64,000 nt of DNA from Geosiphon pyriformis uo1 (GCA_016748015.1 JAAOMT010000419.1:467-64466); one strand, 5' to 3'. Shown: positions 30,920-64,000, counted from the first letter of the stretch. A program made the numbers and translations. The notes: generated by a model not told the origin, from the sequence alone.

Positions 30920-31798
30920 TGTTATTCATAGAAATATAGAAAATATATATTAGCATAGTTATTAGCCAATCAAAAGTAAACATAGTAAAATATAGAATTC
31001 CAGGATTCCTCTCAGGAATTGTAGAATTCCAGGAATTACAGAATTCTTACAAGGAATCGCAGGATTCCAGAATTCCAGGATTCCTCTCAAAAAAATTGCA
31101 GGATTCTAGGAATCCCAGGATTTTTGTCGTAAAGAATCAAGGAATTAAGAAATCTCAATTATGTATATATAGTAGTAGTATTAAAAGCTAAAAAGATAGA
31201 TCTCTCAGTTTAGATTTAATCTAAGCAACCCTCCAAACCACAATCATTTAATAAATAACTATTTGTTATCTCAAATTCATTTCCACTATCAACACTTTAT
31301 GTTGATAATAATTGACACTTAATCACACTAGAACAATAGCTCTTAATCACGGCTATTGATGGAATACTAACTTGCAAATCGCCTTGGCTTATTTCTTTTC
31401 TTTCTTTATTTTTATTTTTTTTCTTTATTTTCTTGCTTTAATTTTATTGTTGTGTACTAACTCTATTGAGGATTAATGCACAGGGCACTGACATCAAAAT
31501 AAACATGACTGGTAAAAGACCCAGAAATAAGGGTAGAACACTCAATTAAGGATAGCTTACCAGGAGGAATACCAGCTATCAAGCTGAGAAAAAAATTGAC
31601 AAAACTGCAGTTTCGGGAAGCTACAAATAAAACTATCATCATTGAATCTCTGTCCATTATACAAAGAACTCAACCAAACCCTTTGGATACAAAACTTTCA
31701 GATATCAAACCTTTAGATCACTATCAACTGCAACTAGATTTGAGCACCAAATTATGGGTTGTTATTTAATCCAACACCAGAAATTGTTATCTGTAATA
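30920..31798 (+). repeat. Gypsy-1 5' LTR
   Basis: Colinear with 40206-41084; ends TGTAATA (CA>TA mutated). Confidence 0.95.
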
Positions 31799-31799
31799 T

Positions 31800-34700
31800 T
31801 TGGTGCTTCCTGTGAGGTATAATTTTACAGAGAATCAGCACCAACAACCCTATCCAAAAGTAGCAGAATCAGAAAACATAAGAGCAAACCATTTAGGATT
31901 CATGAAATCCTTATTTCAACATTACTGTGAACACCTAAGATTAAACCATAATCACATATCCGCAGAATCAGTCTTCAATTTCTATGTCAATGAGAGAATT
32001 GCCTACTTATTAGGAATACCAGTAAACACCGAATCATCAAAAGAAACCTTTTACAGCAAATTGATCCAAAATACCAGCTTACTAACAAATCATAATTTCA
32101 CATCCATCATTACTAAGATCAACAAAGAAATTGAACTTCACACTCAACAAAGATATCCAATTACTTATGCCAGTAAAAGCAAAAGAAAACTACAAACACC
32201 AGCAGTAACACCCAAAAAGATACAACCACCCACTTGGAAGAAAACAAGAGTTGAATCACCAATTGCTCCATCTTATTACTACACACTAAGAAGCGCCATC
32301 AATATAACATCAGCAAGCACATCCACCTCAAACACAATATTAAAATTTGGACAATTCCCATTCCAAAGTAAACAAAGGAAAACAAATCTACTAAGACCAT
32401 ACAGTGAATATTTTGAAGGATTTAAATTGCGATCACCAACACCATTAGGAATTCGATCACTGCCGCCTCAACCAGACTTTGGAACTGCTACCCTGTGGAA
32501 ACTATCTGAAGAAGAAGAGGAAAAAAAATCGGAAGATTAAGAATTTACTTACCAAAATCCGATCCTTGAAAACCCGGAATTTGGAATCCCAAACGTTCAA
32601 ACTCAATGAGAAAATCCGGAAATCAAAACCCTGAATATTCAAACACTGCAAAATCAAAACCCTGAAGTAATTCATCAGCACTTGCCTCCAGTTATCGTCA
32701 TTAATCGACCACAAGTGGAACCAATTGGCCAGCCTATCCAAACACCGAACCAACAAAATCAACAATCACTCCCAGTACCGCCTCAACAACAACAACAACT
32801 TCTACTACAGCAACAACAACTTCTACTACAGCAACAACAACAAATGGCATATGCACCAATTATGAAACTCAACAAATTCACCGGCGAAGAAGACAATACA
32901 CAAGTTTGGCTAAACAATGTAGAAAAAGCCATCGCAGCCAATGGATGGAATGATGCCAGAGCCATGCAAGCCATACCCTATTTTCTTAAGAATACAGTGA
33001 ATTTATGATATCAAAGCCTGGTCAACAAACCCCAAGATTTCAATGCCTTCAAACTAGAATTTTTGAAATACTTTAGCAATAACAACAGCATTAACAGATT
33101 AGCCAACACTTTCACTACAATTAAACAAGGAGAAACTAAAGCAGTTACCACATATCTGGGACACTTCTATAGAAATCTATGACAAATCCAAGCAATTGAT
33201 GCTAATTATTTCACAGTGTCACAGATTCTCAATCAATTCATCTGTGGCCTGTGCAGTAGCATCCTGCAACACATACACCCATTGCATCCAGCCACTCTTA
33301 AGGATGCAGTCATACACATCAGAGATTTTGAATCTGCTGAATTAAAAGCCAATCATGTCCATGCCATAAACCTAGTAATAAATGGATCATCTGAATTGGA
33401 TTCCAAATTGAAACAATTTAGTGATTCAATTAATCAGAAATTAGAGGGATACTTAGCTGACAATCACACAATTTATCAACCACCACAACGATGCAATAAT
33501 CCAGGAAATGCGAATCATTTCCAAAATCAGTCGCATCCATCATTATTATCAGCAGCACCAAATCAGCCATGGCAGCCAGAAATGCGTGTTTGCCACAACT
33601 GTGGTAAACAAGGACACATAAGAGCAGACTGCAGATTTTATAGCAACAATTCATGATTGGGAAATCAATATAGAAATCCCAATCGCAGATTTCAAACTCC
33701 GAATTGTTACCCAAATCAAGATCAAACTACTTACCTGCCAATGACACAGTTACAAATCTATCAACCACCAGTATATCAAACTCCAGTCTATCAAACACCC
33801 ACAATCTATCAACCACAGCCACAAGTAATTTATCAGCCACAACCTCAAGTAGTTTATCAACTCCAACAACAAATTCAAACACCACCACAAAACTTGCCTC
33901 AAAATGGAATCCAAAGGCTGAGAATGATACAACAAAACTGGCAATTGGTGATGATAGTCCACCAACCAATCTTCAGTTTGTCAAACTAGCAAACAGGATC
34001 TCGTCAACAAAATTCAGATACCAGTCATACCCAAAACCCAAATTCCCAGAACTATTTAAGTCTCCTGGTTACCTTAGAAGATGCCACACCCAGCAACCCG
34101 GAAACCAACCCAATCCAAAAACTTACCAGCAATGATCACTGAAGACAAAACATTAGCAGCCATCTTCCCATTTAAGTTCGAGGAAACCACCCCAGTCTTA
34201 TTATTCAGTAGAGCTGCCCTTGAAAAGAAACCTATTACAGCAATGTATACTGATGCCAAAGTAGATGGCCACTCTATCAAATTAATCTTAGATAGTGGTT
34301 GAGCAGGCAGCATTATCCTGCGACAACTCATAGACCAATTAGGTCACCAAGTTGATCATGCTGCTAGTGCGCATATAATCACAGCTGATGGAGCAACCAA
34401 AACTCCAATAAGCAAAATAGACAACCTACCTATTGAAATTAACGGCCTTACAGTACCCATCAAAGTCCTTGTGATGGAAACCACTCAGTACTAAGCTCTT
34501 GTTGGAAATGATTGGCTATCCAAAACAAATACCATACTCAATTGGACAATGCAAGAGCTCCAACTGAGCCAAAATGATCAACATACTTGGGCACCAGCAG
34601 TATGTGGCCACTTTAAACCAACTAACTCGTAGCCACTGATTAAACTTGAGGAGGAAACAAAGAAACCAATATAGAAAGCATATCAGGTTTTGTGGGCTGA

Positions 34701-37700
34701 TGTCAATCACAATAAACTGCTGCCCATACTCTCATGGAATGACAAAGAGAAAAAGAAAGAGGAAGAAAAACTTATCTGGGGAACAAATCAGAGATTTTGG
34801 AGTGATTACAGCCAAAGCAAACCAACTACAGAATGGACTTGGGAAGAGAAAAGAAAAGGAAAAGAACAAGAAAAAGAGCCAGCACAATTTACTACTCCTA
34901 CATATGTCTCATATTCTACACAACTTTAGGCCACCTACCGTCAACCTAAACTTGTATGCATCACGTGTGGCAAGAAATTGTTGGCAATAGGCACATGTTG
35001 TGACAATGATAAAAATTGGCAAACAGCAACAAGATACTATTGTTGCCCATGCATCATTGAATGTGATGGCCAACCATCAAAAGTAAAAAAATAGGACAAT
35101 ACGCCATGCCTAGCATGCAGAAAAACACTTCTGGATAAAGGAATGTGGAATAACATTCCAGGATGAAAAGAAACATGCAATGAAACATGCCAGTACACAA
35201 TCCTAATAAACGATTGGATATGGAAAGGGACCTCAATTAACGATGCATGAAAACAAGCCTTAAAACATCTGGAAGACTACCTACATGATGAACATGAGAT
35301 CTGGAGAATGGCATATGCAATGGCAGAAAGAGCTATAGCTAGTGAGTTGCGGAAAATCAAAACCAATCTATTATCTCTCTCAAAACCAGAATATGTTGCA
35401 ACGTTTGACATTTTTGGTAACATTGAGGATGATCCTGAGGAATTCCATGAACATTACCAATAACTAGCATCCACAAGAGAAGAACAAGAAGAGCAGTTAG
35501 CACAGCTAAACACTCGATTATGTAACCACTGTTTAATTCCATGTGACTTTTAGTATTGTAATGAGTGTGACCTTATTTACAATCTACCACCACGCATGAT
35601 CTACACAATCTCCGAAGAGGAAGAACCAATCAGCAGCTGTGCATCAGACTCAGAATCAATTTTCAATCCCGATTCAAACTCTGACAAGGATAATGATGAA
35701 AACACCAGTTCCAGCTCTGTTCAAAATGGCATTAACAACGACAATGATTCCAACTCAGATTTAAACTCCAATTTAAACTACGAACAATATATCGCACTTT
35801 CTGACCTTACCAAAAAGCAGGAACTTAAATGGTTCAGCGATAACAATAAAGATATTATGTCAGAACACGCACATGATACGAATACTGGATTTGATCTGAG
35901 ATATCCTGGAAAAGAAGCCATTAAATTGGAACCACATTTACACATCTGAATTAATCTGAAAGTAGCTTTAGAAATTCTAGCAACAACAATAGTTCAACTA
36001 GCATCTAGGAGTAGTTTAGCGAAAAAAGGGATAAACATCAGAGGAGAAATAATTGACACAGGATACATAAAAAATATCATTGCTATGCTAACAAAATAAC
36101 TCAGAAAAGGCTTATATCATAGAGCCAAACAAAAAGATAGTACAGGCAATATTCCTGCCTCTGGTTAAAGTAGCCTAATTAGTGTCAGTAGGAAATAGGG
36201 AAGAATTAGGAATAACAGCAAGAGGGATACAGGGATTTAAATCAATGGGTAGAATAAATATACCAGTCAATATGGCAGAAAAAGAAATTGTTAACCAAGG
36301 AGAAATTATCTCAATGAGTCAAGCAATTTCCATTCCACCATATGGCCAGTACATGGTAAGGATAAAGCAGGAAATAAAAGAACAGAATCAGATTTTTGAA
36401 GCAGAACCAATTCTTTGTGAATTAAGAGAGATTGGACTGATCAATCTTTATATACCAGCCAAAAATTACAACCACATCAAAATTCCCATTTATAATAACA
36501 CAAGAAATGTTATAGTAATACCAGCCGGAACTACCATTAGATACTTAAGTACTGAAATAGAGTATCAACCACCAAGCACCATTCCGGACTTTCCACAGCT
36601 TTGTGGATATGTTGATATCACATCACAAACAATATATGAACAAAGCAAATGTTATTTGCTCCAACCAGAGCAATTGGAACAAATGAACATGAGAAACTTA
36701 GACCCACTCTAACGTATGCAGCTCAAGATGTTGTTCAACAATTTCAATAACATTTTTGCCAGTGAAAATGAGTTTGGCAGAACTGATATTATCCAGTATT
36801 AGATCAAAACTGAAGATGCTATGCCAATTAAATAGCGAACATACAGAGTACCACCAGCCAGCCATGAAATCATCCATCAAGAGATCAACTGAATGCTTGA
36901 CAACAAGTTAATTCAGCCATTAATAAGCCCATGGTTATCATCAGGAGTACTCGTCCATAAGAAGAATGAAAAAATCTGATTCTGTGTAGACTACAAGAAA
37001 CTCAATGGTGTTATTCGTGGAGACAGCTACCCAATTCCACAAATCCAGGAATTATTCGATGCTTTTGGTAGAAACAAATGGTTCTCAATATTAGACTTGG
37101 ATAGTAGTTACTGACAAGTAGCCATGAATCCAGCTGACAAGGAGAAGACAGCATTCACCACTAGAAAAGAGAATTTTGAATTTGAAGTAATGTCCTTTGG
37201 TTTAACCAACACCCCAGCCACTTTCCAATGGCTAATAGAAATTGTTTATACTGGCTTATTGTGAAAATCAGTAGTTGTATACTTAGATGACACCAATGTA
37301 TTCTCAAAAACATTTGATGATCATTTTTATTATCTTTAATAAGTGTTTGAAAGATTAAGAAGAGCAGGACTAAAGTTAAATGCAACAAAGTGCTTCTTTG
37401 GCAAGACAAAACTAAAATTCTTGGAACATATAGTTAGCAAAGACAGCATCAAAATGGATCCAGAGAAAATAGAGATAATAAAGAACTTTCCAGTACCAAC
37501 CAATGTGACTGAATTGAAATCATTCTTGGGATTTGCAAGCTATTATCGATGCTTTATAAAGAACTTTTTAAAGATAGCTCAACCGCTCAATAATCTGCAA
37601 ACTAAGAATACCAAATATGAATGGACAGAAAGTTAACAAAAAGCTTTTAATATTCTGAAAAGAAAGCTCATTCAAGCTCCAGTACTAATCTACTCAGATC

Positions 37701-38084
37701 ACAACAAACCATTCATCATTACCACCAATGCATCAGACCAAGCATTAAGAGCGGTACTATCTCAGAAGGGACCAGATGGCAGAGAACATCCAGTAGCATA
37801 TGCTAGCTGAAGTCTAACACCAGCCAAAAAGAACTATGGAACACCAGAACTAGAACATTTAGCAATCTATTAGGCAGTCATAAAGTGGAATGAATACTTG
37901 AGCCAAAAGTTTAATATATACACAGATTATAAAGGGTTAACATCACTTCAAAAACAAGAATTTGATGATAGCTGTCAATCCAGATGGAAAATGAGCACTC
38001 TCACAATATACTTATACTATACACTATAAAAAAGGAAAAGACAATGGAAATGCTGATGGTTTGTTACAAATAAGACAAATCTAA
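31800..38084 (+). pseudogene. Gypsy-1 gag-PR-Cys-rich-dUTPase-RT-RNase H polyprotein (many stops)
   Basis: Capsid (KFTGEEDNTQVWL), Zn knuckle CHNCGKQGHIRADC, protease LILDSG, dUTPase (GFDL, ASRSS, RGIQGF), RT YLDD, RNase H ending NADGLLQIRQI*. Confidence 0.9.
31801..31817 (+). promoter_or_regulatory. Primer-binding site TGGTGCTTCCTGTGAGG
   Basis: Starts TGG 2 nt after the LTR; complementary to a tRNA ending CCUCACAGGAAGCACCA, similar to elongator tRNA-Met or tRNA-Ile(UAU) ends (assignment uncertain). Confidence 0.8.
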
Positions 38085-38145
38085 GAACATTTCAACCCAA
38101 AAATATAACAAAACCAAAACAATACTCACGAAAATATAACAAAAG

Positions 38146-39508
38146 ATGAACACACAAAAATATCAACAACTTCAACATTATATAGATACTCAATAGTTCA
38201 AGAAAAAATTATCTCAACTAGAACAAAAGAGGATCAAACAACAATCCAAATATTTTATCACTTGCCAAAATATACTTTATTGGAAAAATAGAAAAGAGTA
38301 ATTACAGAACCAGAAAAAAAGACAATACTGTTCAACATGCACTCAGATCCAACTGCAGGACATTTTCATAAAGAAGCAACCATAGAAAAAACCAGAAAGA
38401 AATACTATTGGCCATCAATGTATCCAGACATCATCTAATATGTGCAAAATTGTGATGCTTGTCAAAGAAGAGAAGGAACAAGACCCAGCAAACCATTGAG
38501 ACCAATTAAAGTGGAACAACCATTCGACTGTATTGGAATTGATTTAATTGGACCATTAACAATTACCAGCAGAGGAAACAGATACATAGCAGTAGCCATG
38601 AATTATCTCACTAAATAGCCAGAGGCAAAAGCAATTCAAAGAGCAGATGCAGAATCCGTTGCCAAATTTGTTCATCAGGAATTGATTTGTCGACATGAAT
38701 ATCCAAAAGAATTATTATCAGACCAAGAAACGCATTTTGTGAACAGAACATTAACAGAATTGAACCAAAGATTCGGAATTAAGAGACTATTATCATCACC
38801 ATACCATTCACAAACCAATAGATTAGTCGAAAGATTCAACAAAACATTGTGTGAAGCAATAGCTAAGCTCAGCCAAGAAAACCAGAATGATTGGAATTTG
38901 TTGATACTATTAGTATTATTTGCTTATCTGACAATAAAGCAAGACATTACACAAGCAACACCATTTGAATTGGTAAATAGTAGAACAGTAACATTACCAG
39001 TGAAGATAGAGGTTAACACATATCTAACTGAACCAATAACAGAAGAAAATTTCCAAGAAACATTGTTAAGAAGAACATATGACTTAATAGAAACATTGAA
39101 AAACAAATGAAAAAGAGCAGCTGATAATATACAAAAGTCACAAAAGAAACAGAAAAAAGACATAATAATTAACTACCAGACAAACCAGTTGAATTCAAGA
39201 TTGGAGACAAAGTACTCTTACATCATACTAAAACAGAAAAACAATGGAGTAAAAAATTTGACCCCAAATGAGATAGACCATTTTATATAGAAGAAATTCT
39301 AGGGAATGGAGCTTACAAATTAAGACTAGACAACAAAATCTTAACCAAAGCAGCACATGGAGATTGACTGAAACCATACCACAACACCATACCACCATTC
39401 ACCAGTAATATTCCACAATTAGGAGTACAGAGAATACTAGTCCAACCAGATGAGATATCACAAGATCTGGAACCAATCATTATTATTGACAACAACACGT
39501 TAAATTGA
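38146..39508 (+). pseudogene. Gypsy-1 integrase, separate ORF
   Basis: Starts MNTQKYQQLQHY; HHCC (HSDPTAGHF...CDACQ), core IGIDLIGP, SDQ, VERFNKTL; SH3-like C-terminus; no chromodomain seen. Confidence 0.88.
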
Positions 39509-39563: not shown

Positions 39564-40192
39564 ATGGAAATTACAGACAACATTTACTCACTAACACAAC
39601 AACTTTTTCAATTGATTCAACACCAAGAGATAGAAATTACAATTAATCAACAAACCATCTGATATCAAGATACTAGAAAGACATTGCAATACAGAAAACA
39701 GAAGAAACCAGAAAATACCATTGACAAAATCATGGCAAAAATAAAATTGGCAATAAAAGAATCGACAAAAGAGTCAATATATCAAGAGTTAACTAAAGAA
39801 ACTTGGAATTGGTAGATACAACAATTTCCAAGAAACTATTGTTATTTTTACTTGAGACAACATGTAAATATCCAAAATCTATATATGGATAAAACAAAAT
39901 AATTATTTGACACAAGAATACTACAACAATTAGAACATTTTGTGAGAAAGAACAACTTATCCACACAGGCCCAAGCCATATACCAAATACATACAGCATT
40001 TCAGGATCAACCAAAAATATTACTCAACAAAGCAATGGATATGGTTACAGTAATCAATTGGGAAAGATTACCAATACTCAATTTGAAGAATTACAGATTC
40101 AAATAACACAAGTAATTCTCAAAAACAAAATCCAAGAAATACTTCAAGAGGGGAAATTAAATGAGTTGGATTTCGACAGAGCTCATTATTAA
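39564..40192 (+). pseudogene. Gypsy-1 ORF3 (unknown function, env position)
   Basis: Starts MEITDNIYSLTQQLFQLI and ends QLGKITNTQFEELQ...LDFDRAHY*; similar in position and motifs to 57255-58222; frameshifted. Confidence 0.6.
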
Positions 40193-40205
40193 AAGGAGGG
40201 AATAA
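40191..40205 (+). promoter_or_regulatory. Polypurine tract of Gypsy-1
   Basis: AAAAGGAGGGAATAA directly before the 3' LTR. Confidence 0.85.
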
Positions 40206-41084
40206 TGTTATTCATAGAAATATAAGAAATATATATTAGCATAGTTATTAGCCAATTAGAAGTAGACGTAGTAAAATGTGGAATTCCAGGATTCCTCTCA
40301 GGAATTGCAGAATTCCAGGAATTACAGAATTCTCACAAGAAATTGCAGGATTCCAGAATTCCAGAATTCTTCTCAAAAGAATTGCAGGATTCCAGAAATC
40401 CCAGAATTCCTGTCGTAAAGAATCAAGGTATTGAGAAATTTCAATTATGTATATATAGTAGTAGTGTTAAAAACTGAAAAGATAGACTTTTCAGTTTAGA
40501 TTTAATCTAAGCAACCCTCCAAACCACAATTATCTAATAAATAACTATTTGTTATCTCAAATCCATTTCCACTATCAATACTTCATGTTGATAGTAATTG
40601 ACACTTAATCACACTGGAACAATAGCTCTTGATCACAGCTATTGATGAAATACTAACTTGCAAATCGCCTTGGCTTATTTTTTTTCTTTTTTTCTTTTAT
40701 TTTCTTTTCTTTATTTTCTTACTTTAATTTTATTGTTGTATACTAACTCTATTGAGAATTAATGTGTGGAGCATTGACGTCAGGATAAACATAACTGGTA
40801 AAAGATCCAGAAATAAGGGTAGAACACTTGATTGAGGATAGCTTACCAGGAGGAATACCAGCCATCAAGCTGAGAAAAAAATTGACAAAACTGCGGTTTC
40901 GGGAAGCTACAAATAAAACTATCACTATTGAATCTCTGTTCATTATACAAAGAACTCAACCAAATCCTTCGGATACAAAACCTTCAGATACCAAACCTTC
41001 AGATCACTATTAACTGCAACTAGATTTGAGCACCAAGTTACAGGTTGTTATTTAATCTAACACCAGAAATTGTTACCTGTAACA
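40206..41084 (+). repeat. Gypsy-1 3' LTR
   Basis: TGTTATTC...CTGTAACA followed by TSD CTGC. Confidence 0.95.
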
Positions 41085-44000
41085 CTGCAAAACAGCTGAA
41101 ACTAAGTACAAAAATTGTTTATCTGTAATAGTTTTTTTTAACACCACATTAAAAAAAAACTGAACATTTACATGAACTTGAGCCAAATTAAGCTTAAAAA
41201 AATTCTCAAGTATTTGTGTGCTTCACTCCTTTTAACAATAAAAATTGGTAAGCTATTAATCAGCAGAAAAGCAGATTTAATACCTTGATTGATTGGAATA
41301 GCCACTGTTTTGTTATTATTAATCAAAATGTTATTGACTTTAAAAAACTTACTAACAATATTCAAAATGTATTGCATAGAAATCTAACAACTTTTAATTC
41401 AAATTGTATTATTAACAAAAGCACCAGCAGCCAAAAAAAAAGTTCCTCACCAGTTACTTTAATTCTGCCAGATTTCACCACAAACTTAATATTAATTTTG
41501 TATCTATACAAGTGTTCATGTCTCTTAATCTTACACAAAAGCAGATCATAGAAGATTCTTTAGAGAAGTGAAGAAAAGACTTTACCTTAATCTAAACCAT
41601 CATATACTCTATAACTATTCAAAAGTCTAAAATTTGTTATCACCCTATTAATTCTGTTTTCATAAATGTCACCAAAAAACCTAATAAACTGATTACATTT
41701 TGATACAGTACAAGCTAACTTTTAAATAATGCCAGCTTACTGAATTATAAGCCTTGTACATATCTTGTAATACTAGTTAGAACTTTCTGTTTTTCTTCAA
41801 AGTATCTTTTACAACTGACTCAATGGCAAAAATAGAAGACTGGGTTGAGGTTTTTTTCAACACCAAAAAGTTATCACCACAAAGAACATCAAATTTACTA
41901 CAAGTTGAAGATATTCAATCAGAAAAAATTTTTGATAAGATTTTCTGGGCTGTTTTAATTAAAGCAATAGGCTTAGTGTTTGTTAAAACATCATTTTATT
42001 CATAAGATTTAGAGATTATCAACACCTATGCTTTTTTCCAAAAGGTCAAAACTATACTCAATGCTAAACAAATATTTAGCAGCTTTAAAAAACAAGCCAA
42101 CACTTTCCTATCATAATGCTTCCAAAGTTTATTAGAAATTTCAGACAAACCAGCAGCTTTATCATTAGGCAAATTACTAATAGTTAAAGACAATTTTCCT
42201 ATGTCAATCTTTTTTATTACACAAGAGAAGCCATCATTATTCACATAATCTAAAGACATATATTGATAAGACCACAGATTAGGTATCTTTGGGAGCACTG
42301 ACTGTTTTTTTGCCTATCCTTTCATGATCTTATTAACCTTAAGCTTTATCATCTTAGGTTCTACTACTATTTCATTGTTCACCACCAGGTGATCCAAAAC
42401 AATCTTGCAAAATGAGTGTTCTAAAATGCTCTTTATTATTTGTCTCTTGTCAGAACAAAAATTTTCTATATGCTGGTCAATAGTCTTCCTAATATTAGCA
42501 TTTTTAACCACTTTTAACTTATAATACTTAGACTTTCAATATTTTTTTCTCACTAATGACAAATGCCTAACCAAATTTCTTAAACCAATACTATCTGAAA
42601 CCATGCTAATAATCTTAGATTCCTCAACACTATCAATAGATATCCAAACCTAAACAAGATAGTCAAAATTCAGAAGATTTTCAGAATTTTAGTATCTCAC
42701 AATCTTAGCAATAAGTAGCTTCAACTTATAAAATTTTGATAACTGTTTGTTCTTTGAACAATTATATTCACTATACCAGCTCTTAAAAAACACTCCAGTA
42801 GCAGCTTGTACCATGACTTCCTTTAACAAATTTCACATCATATCTAAGTTACCATTGTTCTTTGCAATCTCAAACATGTTCAATTTGGCCAACAACACAG
42901 TGAAAGAACACTCTTTAAAACACAACCACTGAATTTCATCAGCATTCTCTAACTTGAACTTCTATCAGTTTTGGTTGGCTTGCTTATAAGCACTGATAAG
43001 ACAAGCATCCAAGAGTCCACCCAAACCAATTAAAACTAAAACTGACTTATGATCTGTATCAAAAAACCTAGACATATTATCAACTCTATGTAATGCAACT
43101 GCAAACACTAGATTTCTATTCACAAAGATAAATCTATAACCCTTTTAATGCTCTTAGAATTGCTCTAAGTAAGAGTTTTGGTCAATACATATCTATTAAA
43201 AGTATTAACCAGACCCAAATCTAAGCAAAACTTGAAACTAACACTCCTTTTGGACCTATTTTCATTAAAGTCACTACCTAAGACCACAAAAAAGCTAAAA
43301 TTGACTGTTTTAGATATCATAGAGTTGATATCAGCAGCTTGGCCAAAATGAGTACCAATGGATGCATTAGCATAAAGACCCAAAACTGAAACCAAAAGCT
43401 TATTTTTGAACAAAAAACATACAGAGATCAACTAACCAGAAACTTTTTCTACTGTAAACATATGACAAGCCAAAAAATTGTTCATAATTATAACAACTCC
43501 AGTGCCAAAAAAACCTGCATTCAAACCAGAAGTGAAAACCTGAATACTATCAAACTTATTCTTGATCCACAGCCTAATATTAGATCTCAATTTCATTTTT
43601 GTAACAATTAAAATCATGTTCTCTAATTTTATATGCCAATGAACAATATTATTCTGCTTGGCAGGAACATTAATACTCTGAATATTGCACATAACAAATT
43701 TCTAAACCAGATCACTTATTGAAAAGTAAAAAAAGCTAACAAACCTAAACCAGAGCACAAGCAATCTAATCTTTCCAAAACTGATTCAACTAATACTTCC
43801 AAAGCCACCAACTTAGATTCCAACTCATCCACCTTAGTGGTCAAAACCTTAGAACTATTTAAACTAAAGTTAGCAATTGTATCTGCAATGACCAAAAGAA
43901 AGGTGGCAAGAGATGTCAACATATTATCCAAAGCCATATCTGAATCCAAATTAGAAGCCAAAGATGCTGGTACAATCAAAAAAGATACATGGGACTTGGT

Positions 44001-45992
44001 TGTCAAGAGCACCAATTCAACAATGCTTAATTTTTTCAAAATAACAGAAACCTGATCTGCCAAAAAATCCAAAGAGTGTTCCAAAGAAGCCAAATAATCA
44101 ACTAAACAAAAATTACCAAGAGGATTGGAAACTATTAAGATGGGTTTTACACCCAAAGACAAACCAATACTGAAAGAATCCAATAAGATCACATAAAAGG
44201 AAAAACCACTAGCAATCTGGATCCAAGTTTTGTTACCAAAAGAAACCAGATGAGCAATAAGTGTCTACTTTTTCTTATAAATATTGGCCAAGCAAACACA
44301 ATTCTGAAAAGTTACCACCTATTTATCACGACCACCAGGATTTCCACTCATTGCACAATCAACAAATGTATGACCAAATTGTTTATACTAAGTATAACAG
44401 GCCAAAAAAAGACCAGCCCAATGCAAATTCACACCCTTAAACACTGGAATAGAGCCAATAGCAGCCAATTTAGATGTCTTATTTTCAAAACACACTATAA
44501 CACATTTATCACATACATATGAATTTGGATTGTGACCAATAATACAAGTTTTCTCATCATAAAAAACCAACAAATCAAATAAATCATAAACAGTAGTGTC
44601 AATTAGAAATGTATACAACAATGCCTAATGCTGGTTCCTGGACACTTATGTTTGTTTGTCACCAATAGCCTTTGCCACATGAACAGAATTTTTTTTCATA
44701 AAAACAGATCATTTAGCTGTGACCAAATCAGCTACTTCAGATGATTCATATTCTACCAAAGTCTTTTGCCATAAACCAATCAATTGCATTTTGATAGATA
44801 TAATTTTACCAAACTTAGAAAAAACAGACTTTACAACTGATTTGGGAAGATCAACAGGAATCTTTTTGATGATTACTTCCTAATCCAATCAGTTGTTTAC
44901 TTTCTTAAGATAATTATTAACAAGAATTTTTTTACAAACTGCTAATTCCTTTGCCTTATTCAAACTAGTTTTAGATGTAAATAATGATCTAATGATTCCT
45001 GGAAATTTTGAGAAAATAGAAGCTCTCCCAAAATCATCAATTTGATAGAAAATCTTTTTGATTGCAATTAATTTATTACTATTAGTCTTTTTAAATATTG
45101 CTGACAATTCTATATCTAGTGCAAATAATATAGCAGAATTAAAATTCTTAACTTCCTTATTCTGTGATTCAGCCAATAGAAGAGACTAAGACCCAAAAAA
45201 CTTAGGTACAAGCAGCATTATTTTAGCATTATTGTCATTCAAATTCTTGAAAGAAAACATTTTCAGCGACTTATCTAAGACAAATATTCTTGTATGCTTT
45301 TTTCTTAGAGTTGTATTGTTCACCATATTATCAGTCTTAGAAGTATTTGAATTTATGTAATTCATTTTCTCAGCTATCATATTGTTCATGTTTTTGACAT
45401 TAGATACTCCATTAATACTAGTTTCCTCACTTTCTACTTCACTACTCCAAAACATCTTGTATTTACTACTAACAGCTTGTAAAATATTGATAGATATAAG
45501 TCCAGCTGATGAGTTTACCACAACACCAGTAACATTGGATTTCTTTGATTTTTTGTATGCTGAACTACAAAAATAGATATTCTCTATGTATATTTTCTTT
45601 TTAGTGCTGGATCTGATTCCTAATCCAGCCAAAACAGAACCAGAACTATCAGCAGAAGAGCTCACTAGATTCATAGCAACAAAAGAGGTTGTATTAAAAA
45701 AAATAACTACAAAAACTAGAAGAAAAAGAGAAAAAAAAGTATATTTTTTTTAACAATTTTTAGCTTTCATCATGACCAGGAAATCAACAAAAGAAAAAAG
45801 TTTTTTTTTTGTTTTAAATTCTAAAAAATTTTGTCAAATATATAATTCTATTATGTTTTTTTTTTTTTTTACATTTTAATGAGTAAAGTCCAAATACTGC
45901 CTAGTGACAATACATCAAAATAATGATCTAAACTAGGTGTGAATCATGTTTTTCCTACACATAACTAGCCATTCAAGCCAATCAGAACTACA

Positions 45993-48900: not shown

Positions 48901-50672
48901 TTACAGACAGTCTCAATCAGTGCAATAGATCGGGTATTCGTAAAAATTCCCTTTCAGTCATAAGGTTTAGGAATCATAGACACCCAGGTCTTTTTCTAAG
49001 GGCCTGGAACAGCCTCACAAACCAAATAAGAGTTCAAAAAGACCAAAAGTGAATCCAGAACAGACCTATCACAATGCTTCCATAGCTCATTCGAAATACC
49101 AGAAAGGCCAGCAGCTTTATTATTAAACAGATCTAAAACCACACCAAAAAACTCATCTCAATTGGGTGCATAATATTTAAAAAGGCATCATCAAAGACAT
49201 ACTCCAAGGGTTGAAACTGATGACTTCAGTCATCCAAAACATCACCAACTACCATATGCTTTCTGGTCCATCCTTCCATAATCCTATTGACGTGAAATTT
49301 AACCAAACCAGATTCCAAAATAAGGTCCTCATTCACAACCAAATGATCCAATATAACTTTGCGAAATGGTTTCTCAAGTACACTCCTAATAGTCTGGCCT
49401 TTATTCAACCCGAAGTTTTCTATTCTTTTGTTAATTGTCAGCTTGATCTGAGAATCCCAAGCACATTTTGATTCCATCATCTTAAGTGAATGATAATATT
49501 TCTTAATCTTGCCAAAGCTGACCTGATAGCATCAAAATAAGATCCCAAAAAGAAGAAAGATTTGACAGCAAAAGCATTAACAGAATCCAAAGAGACCTAA
49601 ACATTCAAAAAGAAAACAAACTTATTCAATAACACAGAATGTAAGGCCTTCACCAATTTAGAAACCAAAAGTTCCAATCTATGAAAACAAGAAGAGCACT
49701 TGGTATAACCACCATCAAAACCTTTAGACCAGGTCTTTGAGAAAACTTTATTTGCTGAAAAGCAAATGGCTTTGCAAATAACACACCACATGCCATCCAA
49801 ATCAGACAAACAGTGAAAATCTGCAAACTCATTGGAGAACATGGCAAAATTCTCATGAGATGCATTTTTATACCACTCCCATTTAACCTCATCAGCATTT
49901 TTGACATTAAACTTCTACTTGTCTCTATTGGTTTGAACATGAATAGCTTTCAAAACAGGATCTAAAATCCACCAAGACCAATTGTAATTTAAACAAAACT
50001 GTGATCAGTATTGAAGAACTTGTCCACATCCACAACTTGCCTATTTATTAAAGCATTACTTAAACTCTGTGAAATAAAAACAAAATCAATGGTCCTTTCA
50101 ATGTCTCTGGAATTACTCCAAGTAGAAGCCTTAATGTAGGGACTATTAACTAATGTATTGACTAAACCAAGATCCACACATTTACTAAAGCTAGAGCTAC
50201 ATTTGTTCTCATCCTCATTGAAATTACCACCTAATATAACAAAAGTACTCTTATTATAAATCCTGGCTATAAAAGAATTAACAAGACCAGCCTGAATTGT
50301 ATGCCTATTCCGACAGGCCTCTGCATATAAACCCAACACAGAGATGGATTGTTTGTTTTTGAATAGTAAATGAACTATTAAGAGCCTACCTGGAATTTCA
50401 GAGATTTTTGAAACATGTTTGGCTAAATTTTCATTCATGATTAAAGTGACACCTGCACCTAAAAACCCAGCATTCAGACCTGAAGTAAACACTCTTACAC
50501 CAGGAAACTTATTTGCGATCCAAGGCTTGACACTAGAGTAAAGCTTAATCTCAGTAACTATTGAAATGTCATTATTCGAAACCATATGCCATCTAATAAT
50601 GTCTTCTTACTTAGTAGGAACATTCATACTTCTAATGTTACAAGTAGCAATTTTCCAGGCTAAACTACTCAT
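45993..50672 (-). pseudogene. LINE-B ORF2 (APE endonuclease, RT, RNase H, C-terminal CCHC)
   Basis: ATCNIR, TEIKL, GGNFNE, IDFVF, TDH; QDMRKAYN, FSPLLW, AFVNNTIW (from DD); YMDG, ELQAI, SDSQ, KVKDHSG..GN..AD; CLYCGNVELSDHVFFC. Confidence 0.9.
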
Positions 50673-52501: not shown

Positions 52502-52679
52502 AATGTTGACAGTGTCAGACACCAAAGGGACAACAAAAGGATTGGTGAGTTGAAAAATTGTGAAAACCAAGCAAAAGTAAAAGATGAAAACAGATAAAAA
52601 AACAAAAACTTCTTCAAAAATGTGCTATTTTAGGAATTTGGGACATAGGAGAGAAAGAAGTTTTTCCCTATTATGTTTA

Positions 52680-54830: not shown

Positions 54831-54832
54831 GC

Positions 54833-57243: not shown

Positions 57244-57254
57244 TAACCTCCTCC

Positions 57255-58222
57255 TCAAGACTGAGCTCCGTCGAAGTCCAAGTACTGTCTGTTATTTCCA
57301 GATAATAATTCAAAATTATTGAAGAAATTTGGTCTGAAAATTGTTGAAATTTCAGTTCTGTGAGCTTTCCAATATATTGAATCTTCAAAAGTTGAAAAAT
57401 TGGGTTTTGCAGTATGTTTTCACAGGTGTGGAATAGGTTATAAAGTCTAAAAGCAGCTCTGAGCTTGTAGCGACTGTTTGTTGGTCCAGCTGTTGTTTTG
57501 AATTCGTTGTGGAGTTGTTTTTAGATAGCTTTTTTTGTGAAGTTTGCTGTTGTAAGTTCCAGTTTCCATTTGTAGAGTGTTTTTTCAATGTAGAAATATC
57601 TATAGATTGAAGGATATTCAGTGTTTTCCTCCTTGAGACACAATTGAAGTCTTTGTTGACTTGTAGCATTTGGTGGAATACTAATTGGAGTGAGCATTAG
57701 GTTTTCTCTTAAAGCAAGCTTTAAAAGTTCTGGCAGGTGAATTTCAGTGTAACTTCTTGTGTTTTTCTTATACGGTTGATATTTTTGTGAATTTGGGGCT
57801 ACATTTGTAACTACTTCTGTTTGGGTATAATTAATGTGGTTTCTAGTAACAGTAATGGATAATTCGGATATTGTTTTTAAAGCTAACATTAGTTTTTGGG
57901 ATAATTGTTGAATGTTTTNNNNNNNNNNNNNNNNNNNNAGTCTTTGTTGACTTGTAGCATTTGGTGGAATACTAATTGGAGTGAGCATTAGGTTTTCTCT
58001 TAAAGCAAGCTTTAAAAGTTCTGGCAGGTGAATTTCAGTGTAACTTCTTGTGTTTTTCTTATACGGTTGATATTTTTGTGAATTTGGGGCTACATTTGTA
58101 ACTACTTCTGTTTGGGTATAATTAATGTGGTTTCTAGTAACAGTAATGGATAATTCGGATATTGTTTTTAAAGCTAACATTAGTTTTTGGGATAATTGTT
58201 GAATGTTTTGAGGAATAGTCAT
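57255..58222 (-). pseudogene. Gypsy-2 ORF3 (unknown function), containing an artefactual 271-bp duplication
   Basis: MTIPQNIQQLSQKLMLAL...RAAFRLYNLF...YIGKLTELKFQQF; LDFDGAQS* in an adjacent frame. Confidence 0.6.
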
Positions 58223-58339: not shown

Positions 58340-59725
58340 TTAAGTGTTCAGATTGGAAGGTTGTTCAATAACAACTATTGGTTCTAAGTTTCGAGAAATA
58401 TCTTTGAGACTGACCAAAGAGGAATGTGTACCAATTTGTGGAATTAATGGTTCAGGATTGTTTCTGGAATGATAGTGTTTTAAATAATCTCCATGTGCAA
58501 CTTTTGCTAGGATTTTGTCATCAAGTCTTAGCTTGTATGATCTGTTGCCTAAAACTTCATGAATAAAGAATGGTCCATCCCATTTATTTTCAAATTTTCC
58601 ACTCCATTGTTTTTCAGCTTTAGTTCTGTGTAAAAAAACTTTGTTTCCAATTTTAAATTCATTAGTGACTGAAGGCAATTTGTTATCATGTTGTTCTTTT
58701 TGTTGAGCTTGGGAGTGTTCAATATGAGTGGCTGCTATTCGTCATTTTTTTTTCAATGTGCTAAGCAGAGTGTAGGCTCTTCACTGAAGCGTTTCTTGGA
58801 AATTGTTTTCATCAATCGGTTGTGCTGAGTATGTTTCTACTGTGAAACTAATTGGTAACATTGCCATTCTTCCATAAGTTAAATCAAATGGTATGTGTTT
58901 CATGATATCTTGTTTTAATGTCCTATATGCTAGTAACACTGATGGAATAAAGAGATCTCATTCTTGCTTGAAATCGGTTGAGACTTTGGCTAATGACTCA
59001 CACAATGTTTTGTTAAAACGTTCCACAAGTCTGTTTGTTTGTGGATGGTAGAGCAAAGACAAAGGTCTTTTGACATTGAATCGTTTGCAAATTTTTTGTA
59101 TCAGATTGTTCACAAATTGTGTTCCCTGATCGGATAAAAGTTCAATTGGACATTCGTGTCTACAAATAATGTCTTCGTAGATGAAATTTGCTACTGATTT
59201 CGCATCTGCTCGTTAAATGGCTCTGACTTCAGGCCATTTAGTAAGATAGTCTACAGCTACTGCAATATAACAGTTTCCTTGAGTGGTAATAGATAGTGGT
59301 CTGACTAAATCGATACCAACTCTGTCAAAAGACTGTCCAACTTTGATTGGATTTAAAGATTCTGTAGGGCAAGTTCCTCCTCTTCTTTGACAACTATCAC
59401 AAGATTCGACATATTTGTGAATGTCTTTTCTCATTTGAGGCCAAAAGTAGTATTCTAGTGTTTTTTGAGTGGTGATATCTTTTCCGAAGTGTGCTGATGA
59501 AGGATCCAAATGCATGTTGTATAAAATGGTCTCTTTTTCCAGTTCTTGTATTAATCTGAGTGGTTTGGTTGGGTTTTTGAAATTTCGATGATAGATAATG
59601 TTGTTGTGTAGAAAATATTGTTTGGCTTGTTGTTGTAACTGATGTTTTTCATCTGGGGACCAATCTGTTGGGATTGTTAATGTCTCCAAATATTGTTTGA
59701 GATTGTTGTAGTTTTCGGAGTTCAT
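58340..59725 (-). pseudogene. Gypsy-2 integrase, separate ORF
   Basis: Starts MNSENYNNLKQY; HLDPSSAHF...CDSCQ, VGIDLV, SDQG, VERFNKTL, WDGPF. Confidence 0.9.
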
Positions 59726-59774
59726 TGTTTGTTGTTTTGATGCTGTTAATTTAAATGGGTGTTGGTTTTGTTTT

Positions 59775-62700
59775 CTAATCTTGCCTCATTTGTGAAAGAC
59801 AATCAATGTTGGTGTGGAGTTTTTCTAGTTTGTGGTGTACAATGTATTGGTAATTAGCTAAAAATCCTGTCCATCAGGTTTGTTTTGCGTTCAGCTGGGT
59901 GTTTTTGTTTTGAAGCCATTTAAGTCCAATATTATCAATGATAATATCGAATTCTTTGGGTCTGAGGTAAAAGTTGAAGTGATGTAGGGTCCAGATTACT
60001 GTTGCGGTTTCTAATTCTGTTATGGGATAGTTCTTTTCGGCTGGCTTTAATGTTCTACTAGCATAAGCAATTACTCACTCATTTCCATTGTTATCTAACT
60101 GTGATAAGATGGCACCAAAGACAGTATAAGAGGCGTCAGTTGCTAACTGGAATCAGTTGCTGAAATCTGGGTAGGCGAGAATTGGAGCTGTTGTGAGTTT
60201 TTCCTTAAGTATCTTAAAGGCATTTTGGTGTTCTTCTGTCCATTTGTATTTGATATTTTTAGTAGTGAGCTGGTTGAGGGGTTTTGCAATTTCTGAGAAT
60301 CCTTTGATGAATTTTTGGTAATAGGATGCTAATCCAATAAATCCTCTTAATTCTGTGGTATTTTGTGGAGTCTTGAAGTTCTTGACAGTATTGATTTTTC
60401 TGGGGTCTGGTTTAATTCCATCTTTGCTAACAATGTGACCAAGAAAAGCTAAACTTGTTTTTCTAAAGTAGCATTTTTCAATGTTCAGTTTCAATCCTGC
60501 TTTTCATAATCGTTGAAAAACTTCTCGCAGGTGAATTAAATATAGCTCGAAAGATGGTGAATAAACATCAGTGTCATCAAGATAAACTACTACTGATTTC
60601 CAAAGGAGGCCTTTGTAAACAACATCCATGAGTCTTTGGAATGTTGCTGGTGTATTGCATAATCCGAAAGGCATTACATTGAACTTGTAATTTCCTCCTT
60701 GAGTGGTGAATGCTGTTTTGGGGTGGTCTTTGGGATTCATAGCAACTTGCCAGTATTCACTCTCTAAATCTAATGTCGAAAAGTATTTGGACTTTCCAAG
60801 AGCATCCAATATGTCATCAATTCGGAGAAGAGGGTAGGCATCCCCAATGGTGACATTGTTGAGTTGTTGGTAATTAACACAAAATCGTATTTTTCCATTT
60901 TTCTTTTTAACTAGAACCACAAGTAAGGCCCATGGGCTCATTGATGGTTGAATAAACCCATTGTTAAGCATCCATTGTACTTTTTCTTGGATAAATTGGT
61001 GACTTTCTGGAGCAACTTGGTAGGCTTGTTGTTGTCTGGGTTTGGCATCTCCTATATAGATTTGGTGTTGAACCAAATCAGTTCTTCCTAAGTCATTGTT
61101 GTTTTCGGCGAAGATATCAGCAAATTTTGCAATTAGTTCTTTGAGCTGGATCTGTTGTTGTAGTTCAAGTTGTCCCATGTTGATTCGAGATAGTTTTTCT
61201 ATGACAACATGGTAGTTTTCAGAGCTAGGGTTTGGGTTGATTTTTGGTAGTGAATGTTCAATAATTTCAGGAAAATCGGGGACTGTTTGGGGTAATTTTT
61301 GTTGAAATATATTACTGTAAATAACTCCAATTTCTAAATTATTTAATAAAATTATGGGGTAATTATTGGGGTTGTAAAAAGTAACTCGGACTTTCTTTGT
61401 TCCTTCTAGAATATAAATGTTTGGGATTGAAATATTATGTTCCAAGCAGACTTGTTCATTGGACTCAAAAATTTGTTGTGTGGTTGTTGGCTTTGTGCAA
61501 GTGTAGATTTCTGGATGTTCTCCAAAGGGTGAGATGGTAATCAGTTGTGGAAGTCTGAAAATCTGGTGGAATTTGTTCTGTATGTTAAGAGCTATATTAA
61601 TTGGAACTGTGAATCGTCCAGTTGAACCAAAACCTTGAGTTCCTCTATTGCTCTTTCCTAATTGCTCTTTTTGATTGACTAGTTGCAAACCTGAAATGTT
61701 GATTAGGGGTAGGTAGATAGCTTGGGCAATTTTTTTAGCATGTTCAATCTTGAATGGTTTGTCAGTTTCATTTTGAAGCATCACTGTTATGTCTCCAATA
61801 TATCCAGCATCGATTATTCCTCCTCTGACATTGATTTTCTTGCTTGCCAGAGAGGACTGGGAGGCAATTTGAACTATTGCTCCTGGTGGAATTTTGAGTG
61901 CAATTTTGAGGTTAATTTTTGTGAGAGATTTGGGTTTGAGAACAAGAGTATCCTTGTCTGGATATCTTAGATCATATCCAGCATCAATTTCGTGTGCTTT
62001 TTCAGGTTTTATTCCTTGTCCGTTGTTGTTGAAGTATTTAAGTTGTAAGGCAGGCTGATTTTCAATAAGGTAGATGGATGTTGTTTCAATTTCTTCTGTT
62101 TCTTCAGGTTCTCCAAATTCAATTTTATTCTCATCATTTTCGCTGGGCAAAGAAATACTAAGAGCATAACATTCAGAACATCATTGTTCATCACAAGGCA
62201 TAATGCATTCTTCACATAGCCTAATGTTCATTTGCTCTAATCATTAAATTTAAGCTTCTTGGGTCGGGTAGATGTGACTTGCAATTTGGTGATAGACTTC
62301 TATTTCATCTTTGTAATCGAATCCAGCTAATTCCATAGTGTATTCAATGTATTCTGCTTCTTTCATTTGACAAACATCTTCTTTGGTAGCTCCATTAATT
62401 AATGCCATTGCTAAGTCGAAAATCATCTCAGCATCATGAGAGTAGTGATAAAGTTTGTTGAGAGCACTGTTGTATGCTGCATTAAAGGGTGTTCCTCTTT
62501 TTACTTTTTCTGAAATTGATAAAGCATATTGGCAGGTCTGATCGCAGACGCCTCCTCTTATTGCTACATTAATCCAATTGCATTCTTCCGGTAGTATATC
62601 TCCACAAGTTAAACAAGGGGTGTTGTTCCATTTTCCGCTCCTTTTTATTAGATGGCCCCATCACTCTCTGTGGTAAGCCTTACAGTAATAACAAGTATGA

Positions 62701-64000
62701 TTCTCATATTCTTCTTCAGATGAAATGCAGGCTCCCATTAATGATAGTTTCTTGTGGCAGTCCTTATATTTAAGGGGAATATAGGGGCGTTGTTTCCTTG
62801 GTTCGGGTTTTGAGTAAGGTATATTCCATCCAAAGGTTTCGGGTTTAGTGTGTGGGGTAAAATGTTCTTGTTCTGTTTCATCGGCCCAGTTGGACGTTGA
62901 TCCAAGAGCCATAAATGTTTTGATTATTGGTTTTTTTTCTTCTGGTTCAAATTCAAAAGCCGGGGCTTTTTCAGAGCATTTGTTGAATGTACCACAAATG
63001 GCAGGTACCCAGACGTGTTATCCTTGGTAGGAGATTGTTAACTCTTGTGTTTCCCAATTCAGATTAGCATTGGCTTTTTAAAACCAATCATTTCCGACAA
63101 GAGCTTGGTACTGGGGTGTGTCTATTACAAAAACTTTGACTGGAATGATGATTCCATCAAGAGTAAATGGAAAATTGTCAATTTCTCCTACTGGGGTCTT
63201 TTTCATGCTATCGGCAGTGACGATTACTGTTTGAGCTGGTCAGTCGACATTTCTTTTCAACTGTTGCATTAACTGGTAGGTAATAATGCTTCCAGCAGAT
63301 CCACTGTCTAAGATCAAGCGAATTGGCTTTCCTTCTACTTCAGCTTCTGTGTACATTGCAGTGATGGCTTTTTGCTCATTAGCCACTGCATTGCTAAGCA
63401 AGAATGGTGATTCATTTGCTTCAAATTCAAAAGGAAAGATATCAGAGAGATTGGCATTTTCAGCAATTCAGGCTGGTGGAATAGTGGTGTGGTTATGAGA
63501 AGAGTTTCGTTGTTGTTGTACTGCAGCTCTACCTTCTGAGAGTGCAGTATGATGAAAATCCTGTTCTTCTGGCATTGTTAAATAACTGGGTTGAGTGTGG
63601 TAATGGTTGGGTCTTGGTTGAATGGTATTTTGGAAAACCAATTAGTTGTTCGAACTGATTCTATTGTTGTTTATTTGGTATTGGTTTTGTGGTGTGAATT
63701 GATTTTGTGTAATCAGTCTTTGAGCAGGTACTTGATAATGTTGTGTGGGTGGTTGTTGGTATTGCTGTTGGATTGGTTGTGAGGCGGGCTGATAATAGTT
63801 ATTTTGGTATTGGGGTCTTGGTGGATAGTAAGCTGGTGGTGATGGTTGATAATAAGATTGCTGTGGTGGAGAGTAACGTTAATTACCCCTATTTTGTTGG
63901 TCTCATTGCAGCTTTCTGCAATCTCTTTTTCAGTGGCCAGAGATTCCACAGTAATGGCAATTCTGGGGCTGGTTATTGGAAAGTGGTGCAAAGTTATTTT
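59775..64000 (-). pseudogene. Gypsy-2 gag(end)-PR-Cys-rich-dUTPase-RT-RNase H
   Basis: dUTPase motifs AGYDL, ASQSSL, GIIDAGY, IAQAI, RGTQGFGSTG; RT VMPFGL and YLDD; RNase H ends NIDCLSQMRQD*. Confidence 0.92.

Follow-up and report, generated by a model that had tools for sequence, protein, structure and literature searches.

A Ty3/Gypsy variant lineage with integrase encoded as a separate gene

Two decayed Gypsy-type elements in the window

The 64,000-nt stretch of Geosiphon pyriformis DNA analysed here (the window) carries two Gypsy-type LTR retrotransposons, E1 on the plus strand and E2 on the minus strand, both decayed (Table 1). Pfam confirmed the dUTPase, the RT, the RNase H (RH) and the zinc finger and core of the integrase (IN), and a CCHC knuckle and gag homology were found in E1 and E2; together with translation and domain search, Pfam bore out the layout proposed in an earlier note on this DNA, in which a gag-PR-Cys-rich-dUTPase-RT-RH gene is followed by separate genes for IN and ORF3. 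The LTRs of E1 are 91.4% identical over 876 columns, with transitions making up 73 of the 75 differences, and the target duplication is CTGC, provided that the LTR end is taken as ..CA. E2 extends from about 57.2 kb to past the end of the window. No dUTPase was found in four intact relatives scanned. Decayed non-LTR elements (endonuclease, RT, RNase H-like), read by eye, flank the Gypsy copies at about 30000-30900, 42000-52600 and 54800-56400 (-), and a BTB/POZ-like gene fragment, also read by eye, lies at 19932-20597.

Table 1. Features of elements E1 and E2, in window coordinates.
Feature	Position	Strand	Basis
E1 5' LTR	30920..31798	+	TG start
E1 primer-binding-site-like stretch, TGG..., directly 3' of the 5' LTR	31801..31818	+	sequence
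E1 gag-PR-Cys-rich-dUTPase-RT-RNase H, decayed	31797..38084	+	translation, domain tblastn
E1 dUTPase, between Cys-rich region and RT	about 35860..36250	+	
E1 spacer, 61 nt, A/C-rich, AUG-free, unstructured	38085..38145	+	sequence, folding
E1 stand-alone integrase gene, decayed	38146..39508	+	translation, tblastn; ATG aligned to relatives' conserved Met
E1 ORF3 remnant, probable	39564..40190	+	position only
E1 polypurine tract	40191..40205	+	sequence
E1 3' LTR	40206..41084	+	LTR pair comparison
E2 gag (3' part)-PR-Cys-rich-dUTPase-RT-RNase H, decayed, one frame; 5' end outside window	59775..64000	-	translation, Pfam
E2 dUTPase, between Cys-rich region and RT	61617..62006	-	
E2 spacer, 49 nt, A/C-rich, AUG-free, unstructured	59726..59774	-	sequence, folding
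E2 stand-alone integrase gene, 461 codons, 4 internal stops, no frameshift	58340..59725	-	Pfam
E2 ORF3, decayed, holds assembly duplication across N gap	57250..58222	-	weak profile match

In both elements the upstream gene stops after RNase H at the same aligned codon. The gag-to-RNase H region of E1, which has several stops and frameshifts, ends in NADGLLQIRQI and TAA (38082-38084), and its integrase begins with AAG-ATG at 38146, then MNTQKYQQLQHYIDT; that of E2, with 1,408 codons, 18 stops and zero frameshifts, ends in NIDCLSQMRQD and TAG (59777-59775), and its integrase begins with ACA-ATG at 59725, then MNSENYNNLKQYLET. Re-reading of the sequence found every coordinate that the earlier note gave for the two junctions to be correct. 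As it had also observed, protein similarity resumes at the IN Met, whose ATG is aligned with the conserved Met of relatives, and the spacers cannot be aligned, with 990 of 1000 shuffles scoring as high. Both spacers are 59% A, with a folding energy of about 0 kcal/mol; that of E1 holds a single TAA in the IN frame (38137-38139), and in E2 the IN frame is open from 8 nt 5' of the stop, across the spacer, to the ATG. The RH tail of E1 is joined to RT through a decay frameshift about 60 nt 5' of the stop, so the +1 phase of its integrase is valid only relative to the RH tail.

Decay has also reached the downstream genes. The E1 integrase is interrupted by a stop at codon 17 and is shifted in frame near 38290 and again near 39150. 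In the E2 integrase, Integrase_H2C2 and rve score over the Pfam cut-off and SH3_Tf2-1 under it, and the closest named protein among the matches listed is from Geosiphon pyriformis, at 83% over part of IN. The E1 ORF3 region gave no significant match to the ORF3 profile, and that of E2 gave weak ones affected by composition bias, at E 6e-4 and 2e-3 in a search of 18 frames; within the latter, an exact 271-nt duplication flanking a 20-N gap (57648-58209) is an assembly artefact. Both window copies are dead and, alone, are little proof of a split.

The split across relatives and its likely origin

The N-terminal 170 residues of the E2 integrase, used as query against metagenomes, matched 271 relatives; the 80 highest-ranking ones were taken, in a ranking that favours full-length matches. 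An ATG stands at the exact aligned position in all 80 of these loci. RNase H lies directly upstream in 28, and in all 28 its frame stops 5' of IN; most other loci have an RNase H with an acidic, Cys/His-containing C-terminal extension that stops before IN. One continuous RH-IN reading frame, the observation that the earlier note had named as telling against a split, was found in none of the 80 loci. Of 82 junction rows, 20 were excluded for upstream DNA that was too short or decayed, and the 62 scorable rows came to 52 after removal of near-duplicates; a stop precedes IN in 52 of 52. In L004, L024, L028, L030, L037 and L039 an open gag-PR-RT-RH frame of 1,457-1,849 codons precedes a separate IN, and among the 13 loci of at least 5.5 kb, 6 have the whole open gag-to-RH frame and the other 7 also have a separate IN. 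The intact relatives match Retrotrans_gag, Ty3_capsid and zf-CCHC in Pfam.

A protein search returned 903 matches of 253-807 residues, 96 of the 120 listed beginning at the conserved Met, Rhizophagus irregularis proteins included, and a search for longer (fused) forms returned 542. In five long NCBI proteins (P0123, P0124, P0126, P0127 and P0130) the end of RNase H, the start of IN or both are missing, and we infer that they are gene models spliced across the stop; some database annotation thus appears to hide the split. In the JGI protein P0125, RT, RH, IN and ORF3 form one continuous frame, and the aligned position holds no Met. In the family of E2, 252 contigs from one DNA run, possibly the window's own sample, were compared at the junction: the TAG has no listed change, and the only indels listed in the spacer are of 1 and 2 nt, at equal depth. 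The dN/dS ratios of 0.05-0.09 for IN and 0.09-0.15 for ORF3 (unsaturated comparisons, five locus pairs) indicate that both genes are under purifying selection. The split was read by the earlier note as an inherited design rather than decay, and the intact relatives and the TAG of E2's family sustain that reading: sequence comparison indicates a lineage trait, and makes the three-gene layout with a separate IN near certain. The lineage is large and likely from mycorrhizal fungi.

Several observations accompany this survey. Eight contigs (L029, L042, L045, L049, L055, L068, L073 and L080) are circularly permuted, in the order IN-ORF3-single LTR-gag, which reflects either LTR collapse in assembly or one-LTR circles. 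One stand-alone integrase of the lineage (P0317, in the cluster of L062) is listed in NCBI under an archaeal MAG, probably through bin contamination. The pol C-termini of L015, L025, L026, L028, L030, L035 and L037 share a conserved ...LPFY...(E/P/N/D)LD-stop or similar ending, and the same LPFY tail occurs in L051, L062, L065, L067, L068, L069 and L073; following the RNase H extension, this tail is a candidate docking peptide. No integrase relatives were found in viral contigs.

E1 and E2 are sisters, with support of 98 on IN, 97 on RT and 100/99 on RT+IN, and the split is therefore common to both by descent. The argument of the earlier note from two independent families is weakened by this relationship, and it is the intact relatives that supply the proof. 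The split elements, with P0125 among them, group together with weak support (85 on RT, 81/59 on RT+IN). On the RT and RT+IN trees, built without named reference clades and without Bel, Copia or retrovirus outgroups, the lineage falls among unnamed fused Gypsy-type proteins, and a split-only clade is not rejected on RT alone (p-AU 0.93); the IN tree is a quick tree from which 7 loci with a short or frameshifted IN were dropped. The RT+IN tree groups P0125 with L033, an ATGA-overlap element, at 100/98, which calls for at least two changes of state: either one split and a re-fusion, or two splits. With P0125 fused at both junctions and lacking the aligned Met, the simplest reading is that polyprotein cleavage junctions became stop/start junctions elsewhere, and it is likely that the lineage arose in this way, by conversion of the protease-cleavage junctions of an RT-RH-IN-ORF3 polyprotein.

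ORF3 is a conserved family of 130-200 aa, with 474 clusters at 50% identity (E<=0.001), modelled as a compact, all-helical protein with pLDDT 95. It has no match in Pfam, and none in the PDB and viral fold libraries at E<=0.001 (best Z 4.8). A T4 RegA-like repressor was suggested by an Atlas feature score of 0.93, with 134 of 256 features shared, but the suggestion gained no support from Pfam, where ORF3 has no match, or from three fold searches, in which RegA did not appear. In P0125 ORF3 is fused to the IN C-terminus, which suggests that it works with IN and argues against a TAV-like restart factor.

The pol/IN junction and possible routes to a free integrase

The stop (52 of 52) and the position of the ATG (80 of 80) are as invariant as the earlier note had proposed, but the phase is not. 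The +1 phase that it described holds for E1, relative to the RH tail, and for E2; over the 52 junctions the phases are mixed (+1 in 22, +2 in 19, 0 in 11), and 37 of the 47 positive spacers contain a stop in the IN frame. Mixed phases and blocked spacers exclude a common frameshift or read-through for the lineage, and with it a +1 shift at the stop as the lineage's mechanism. An A/C-rich spacer is likewise true of E1 and E2 but not lineage-wide, many relatives having U-rich spacers or overlapping genes, and entry on a CAA-rich leader falls as a lineage mechanism for the same reason. Spacer length ranges from -40 to 506 nt, mostly 25-150, and is 28 nt or less in 10 of 52 junctions; pol and IN overlap or touch (ATGA, ATGAATGA) in 6 of 52, and IN and ORF3 do so (ATGA, TAATG, ATGAATAA) in 7 of 20.

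The IN ATG has a strong Kozak context, with a purine at -3 in 78 of 82, and the spacers that lead to it are nearly devoid of ATG. A single ATG occurs in 44 spacers against 37.7 +/- 4.8 expected from dinucleotide shuffles, or 1 against 11.7 outside the hairpin described below. The triplets TAC, CAT and ACT are also low, with a z similar to that of ATG and a depletion of about 1.4-1.8-fold compared with 12-fold for ATG; with the spacers G-poor as well, composition explains much of the loss. Per nt, ATG occurs at a rate of 0.021-0.035 in pol except for its final 30 nt, where the rate is 0.012, and beyond the stop the rate is 0.0003; at 30 nt or less from the IN ATG, ATG stands at 6 of 178 positions inside pol compared with 0 of 1,322 in spacers. 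The boundary of the AUG-free zone thus tracks the pol stop rather than the distance to the IN ATG. An exception to the AUG-free rule is the clade of L060, L074, L075 and L077, with pol/IN gaps of 365-506 nt that contain AUGs.

Further features of individual subclades were seen at or near these junctions. The long gaps of L060, L075 and L077 carry a repeated GACCAGGACATGTC..AAACTGTTTCCA motif. The same three loci have a conserved in-frame TGA-CTA at the gag-protease/RT border (L060:3926-3931, L075:870-875, L077:45-50), presumably a stop read-through signal, and L060 has no ORF3 after IN. In three loci (L001:3116, L002:416, L004:4872) the spacer opens with a repeat of the polypurine tract that the element itself carries, AGGAGGGAATA, which is likely a central PPT positioned at the pol stop itself. 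A second, poorly aligning spacer motif, TGGACA...ACGGC..TTGAT(T), precedes the IN ATG in another subclade (L003, L006, L007, L008, L010, L034, L040, L047, L064 and L066). Among the 5-mers tested there was no enrichment of UGGGA upstream of the stop (10% / 0% of last-100-nt windows compared with 6-7% in controls), a result to be read with a fungal rRNA complement that may differ.

The most novel piece sits in the relatives and not in the window. In 41 of the 80 relatives a 37-nt hairpin, one per locus, lies 3-34 nt 5' of the IN ATG, with the consensus RGTGAAAGC-N4/5-GY-stem-CANNGTGA-stem-RGCY. RNAalifold and a count of named pairs agree on its fold: above a lower stem come an 11-nt bulge on the 5' side, an upper stem of 6 bp, a bulged A and finally a stem of 2 bp closed by a triloop. 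In an alignment of 32 of the 41 copies (near-duplicates and 5-nt-loop variants excluded), 96.4% of cells are paired and 9 of 14 pairs show two-sided change. When changes are placed on the IN tree (n=29), both partners share 32 of 34 stem changes, compared with 62 of 163 in mismatched columns, so the covariation represents many independent events. The covariation predicts a new small structured element. A model built from the hairpin recovers the same 41 copies and three further weak or cut ones and has no match in the 64-kb window, the E1 and E2 spacers included. The hairpin marks one clade (support 96 on the IN tree), to which R. irregularis families belong by protein, and is missing from L049 and L055, intact members of that clade. 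It has no match in Rfam at family thresholds, epsilon included; its pattern has 0 matches in viral contigs and 11 in prokaryote genomes, mostly stemless and at most 19 bits on the model, which were taken as chance. A hammerhead ribozyme, permuted forms included, has a CUGAnGA core with GAAA; it was rejected, since CTGAnGA occurs within 60-80 nt on either strand at only 2 of 41 loci and Rfam has no match.

The position and strand of the hairpin bear on its possible role. In 18 of 25 cases the distance from the pol stop to its start is 20-30 nt, and in 11 of 25 its end is 3 nt from the ATG; given the size of a ribosome footprint, it would lie just past a terminating ribosome, and reading of the AUG would require it to open. 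An invariant U-G pair favours an RNA of the sense strand as the form that folds; the folding energy is equal on both strands, so a role in single-stranded DNA is also conceivable.

Among the four expression routes listed by the earlier note (reinitiation, internal entry on a CAA-rich leader, subgenomic RNA or a +1 shift at the stop), reinitiation is the best fit and subgenomic RNA stays in play, and the other two fall as mechanisms of the whole lineage. We put the probability at roughly 0.5 that ribosomes stop at the end of gag-pol, scan the AUG-free gap and restart at IN. The genomic RNA would then be polycistronic for gag-pol, IN and ORF3, a fraction of ribosomes would scan from the gag-pol stop to the IN ATG and again to ORF3, and a low restart efficiency would keep the IN dose low. 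The AUG-free zone that begins at the pol stop, the strong Kozak context, the ATGA and TAATG overlaps and the spacers without any AG are features in keeping with restart. Against it, the gaps of the L060, L074, L075 and L077 clade do not fit simple scanning, P0125 is fused yet groups with a split element, and restart after a frame of 1,500-1,850 codons is normally poor. Viral restart of the TURBS type places stop and start within about 20-30 nt in the available part of PMC10275272, a spacing exceeded by both window spacers, at 61 and 49 nt, and by most relatives' spacers.

An integrase no longer towed by Gag may be picked up by the genomic RNA close to the IN gene, or may be loaded through ORF3 or the conserved Pol C-terminal tail. 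Capture guided by RNA, with the hairpin as the candidate site in its subclade, is the leading but tentative proposal, drawn from analogy with foamy-virus Pol and hepadnavirus P. Still more speculative, and on balance unlikely as a whole, is a combined account in which a polyprotein became a gag-pol/IN/ORF3 operon by stop-restart, an epsilon-like hairpin switch in one subclade controls IN translation and loads free IN, and ORF3, as a helical family derived from the IN C-terminus, acts as partner.

The strongest rival to restart holds that IN and ORF3 are translated from their own capped subgenomic RNAs, made from an internal promoter or a splice acceptor near the pol stop, with the spacer as 5' leader and the hairpin as a promoter or leader element. 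This is possible, if doubtful. It predicts AUG-free leaders and a strong Kozak context equally well, it would accommodate the U/A-rich spacers of many relatives and the L060 clade, whose long gaps contain AUGs and a repeated motif, and it has a precedent in the foamy-virus pol and env-type spliced RNAs, as far as the available part of PMC7828637 describes them. It fits poorly with an AUG-free zone that starts at the pol stop at any spacer length, with the 6 of 44 spacers that contain no AG, and with a pair of successive junctions spaced by -4 and -8, overlaps that are typical of coupled restart. Internal ribosome entry, in which the spacer recruits the 40S subunit regardless of upstream translation, is improbable: hairpins that end 3 nt before the ATG and the A-rich, unstructured spacers of E1 and E2 would suit it, but no spacer feature is lineage-wide, some junctions are spacerless, L049 and L055 are intact without the hairpin, and the fixed distance of at least 20 nt from the stop suggests coupling of the hairpin to termination.

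For the window's own clade alone, a +1 frameshift at the RNase H stop could still give an RH-IN fusion. Both E1 and E2 are in +1, the IN frame of E2 is open up to the ATG, the indels listed for the spacer in the family of E2 add up to 3 nt and have equal depth, and the blocking TAA of E1 could be a product of C-to-T decay. We nevertheless consider this very unlikely, with all three phases found among the 52 junctions, IN-frame stops in most spacers, no conserved peptide encoded by the spacer, G/T-poor spacers that would be open by chance, and the Met and its Kozak context retained. Decay or assembly error in dead copies, which the stops throughout both copies and the frameshifts of E1 might have suggested, is dismissed in view of the split in intact relatives, dN/dS far below 1 and a TAG unchanged among the contigs of E2's family.

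Comparison with known systems

In textbook LTR elements and orthoretroviruses, integrase enters the particle only within Gag-Pol. A diverse and successful lineage without the Gag-Pol link must solve both the expression of an internal gene and the packaging of a free integrase, and its overlapping, bare-spacer and hairpin-spacer junctions provide natural test cases for restart after very long frames in fungi. ORF3 adds a new protein family without a fold match, and the hairpin is open to immediate assay. Relatives are present in R. irregularis, in which expression of Gypsy elements has been reported (bioRxiv 10.1101/2021.03.30.436303, in the part available), so that existing long-read RNA data could decide the mechanism.

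The split of the integrase is real and lineage-wide, and among known systems the lineage resembles the canonical Ty3/Gypsy elements. Like Saccharomyces Ty3 and its kin (PMC7879559), it has LTRs with a PBS-like stretch and a PPT (as a pair in E1), a capsid/nucleocapsid Gag, the order PR-RT-RH-IN, and RNase H and IN domains of Gypsy type, with an RT that is probably of that type too. The ICTV Metaviridae profile places IN in pol and gives gag-pol, gag+pol or gag+pol+env as the only layouts (PMC7879559); here, in contrast, IN lies outside pol and the third gene encodes a small helical protein, not Env. With a stop before IN at 52 of 52 junctions, we file the lineage as a Ty3/Gypsy variant rather than an ordinary member. 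An errantivirus-like element bearing env was rejected, ORF3 being 130-200 aa, modelled as all-helical and without a Pfam match. Ginger/GIN DNA transposons have IN alone, with no gag or RT, and terminal inverted repeats; a transposon of this type was rejected on the presence of LTRs and of gag-PR-RT-RH upstream of IN. In the accessible portions of the open full-text literature, no Gypsy lineage with a separate integrase gene and no such hairpin is described, though Repbase, GyDB, subscription journals and supplements may hold consensus entries. The available parts of papers on Troyka (PMC12440569), Mucor TEs (PMC11943222) and permuted hammerheads (PMC10085705) contain nothing explaining the split or the hairpin, and that on fungal RNA motifs (PMC5640933) has zero term matches and nothing explaining the finding.

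Restart has parallels elsewhere. In the excerpted text of PMC5972666, LINE-1 ORF2 restarts across a 63-nt spacer, and SART1 uses a UAAUG overlap and needs downstream structure. Both place an enzyme gene behind a stop with a similar spacer or overlap, and structure 3' of the stop is shared by one subclade here; unlike them, the present lineage is an LTR element whose upstream frame has 1,500-1,850 codons, and the predicted restart would yield IN alone. The same excerpt describes stop/restart in fungal RNA viruses, at AUGA in victoriviruses and UAAUG in the hypovirus CHV1. These overlap words recur at some junctions of the lineage, and fungal ribosomes are evidently capable of restart; most junctions here, however, are 25-150 nt apart, and a test of 5-mers gave neither a pseudoknot nor a UGGGA signal upstream. 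Caulimoviruses, in the part of PMC5902531 available, translate a polycistronic RNA with TAV/P6 through distance-independent scanning restart. They belong to the same order and share separate ORFs on one RNA and an accessory protein as the last ORF, but have no integrase. Neither Pfam nor the fold searches match ORF3 to TAV, and ORF3 also occurs in a single-polyprotein relative, which would have no need of restart.

For packaging, the nearest comparison is with foamy-virus Pol and the hepadnavirus P protein, which are packaged through RNA signals according to the available parts of PMC7828637 and PMC10534774. There the whole polymerase is separate, whereas here IN alone is, and the hairpin has no Rfam match to epsilon. 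In all of these systems an enzyme made apart from Gag needs another route of recruitment, and, so far as the partial sources describe it, hepadnavirus epsilon resembles the hairpin in outline, with a lower stem, a large 5' bulge, an upper stem, a single 3' bulge and a triloop.
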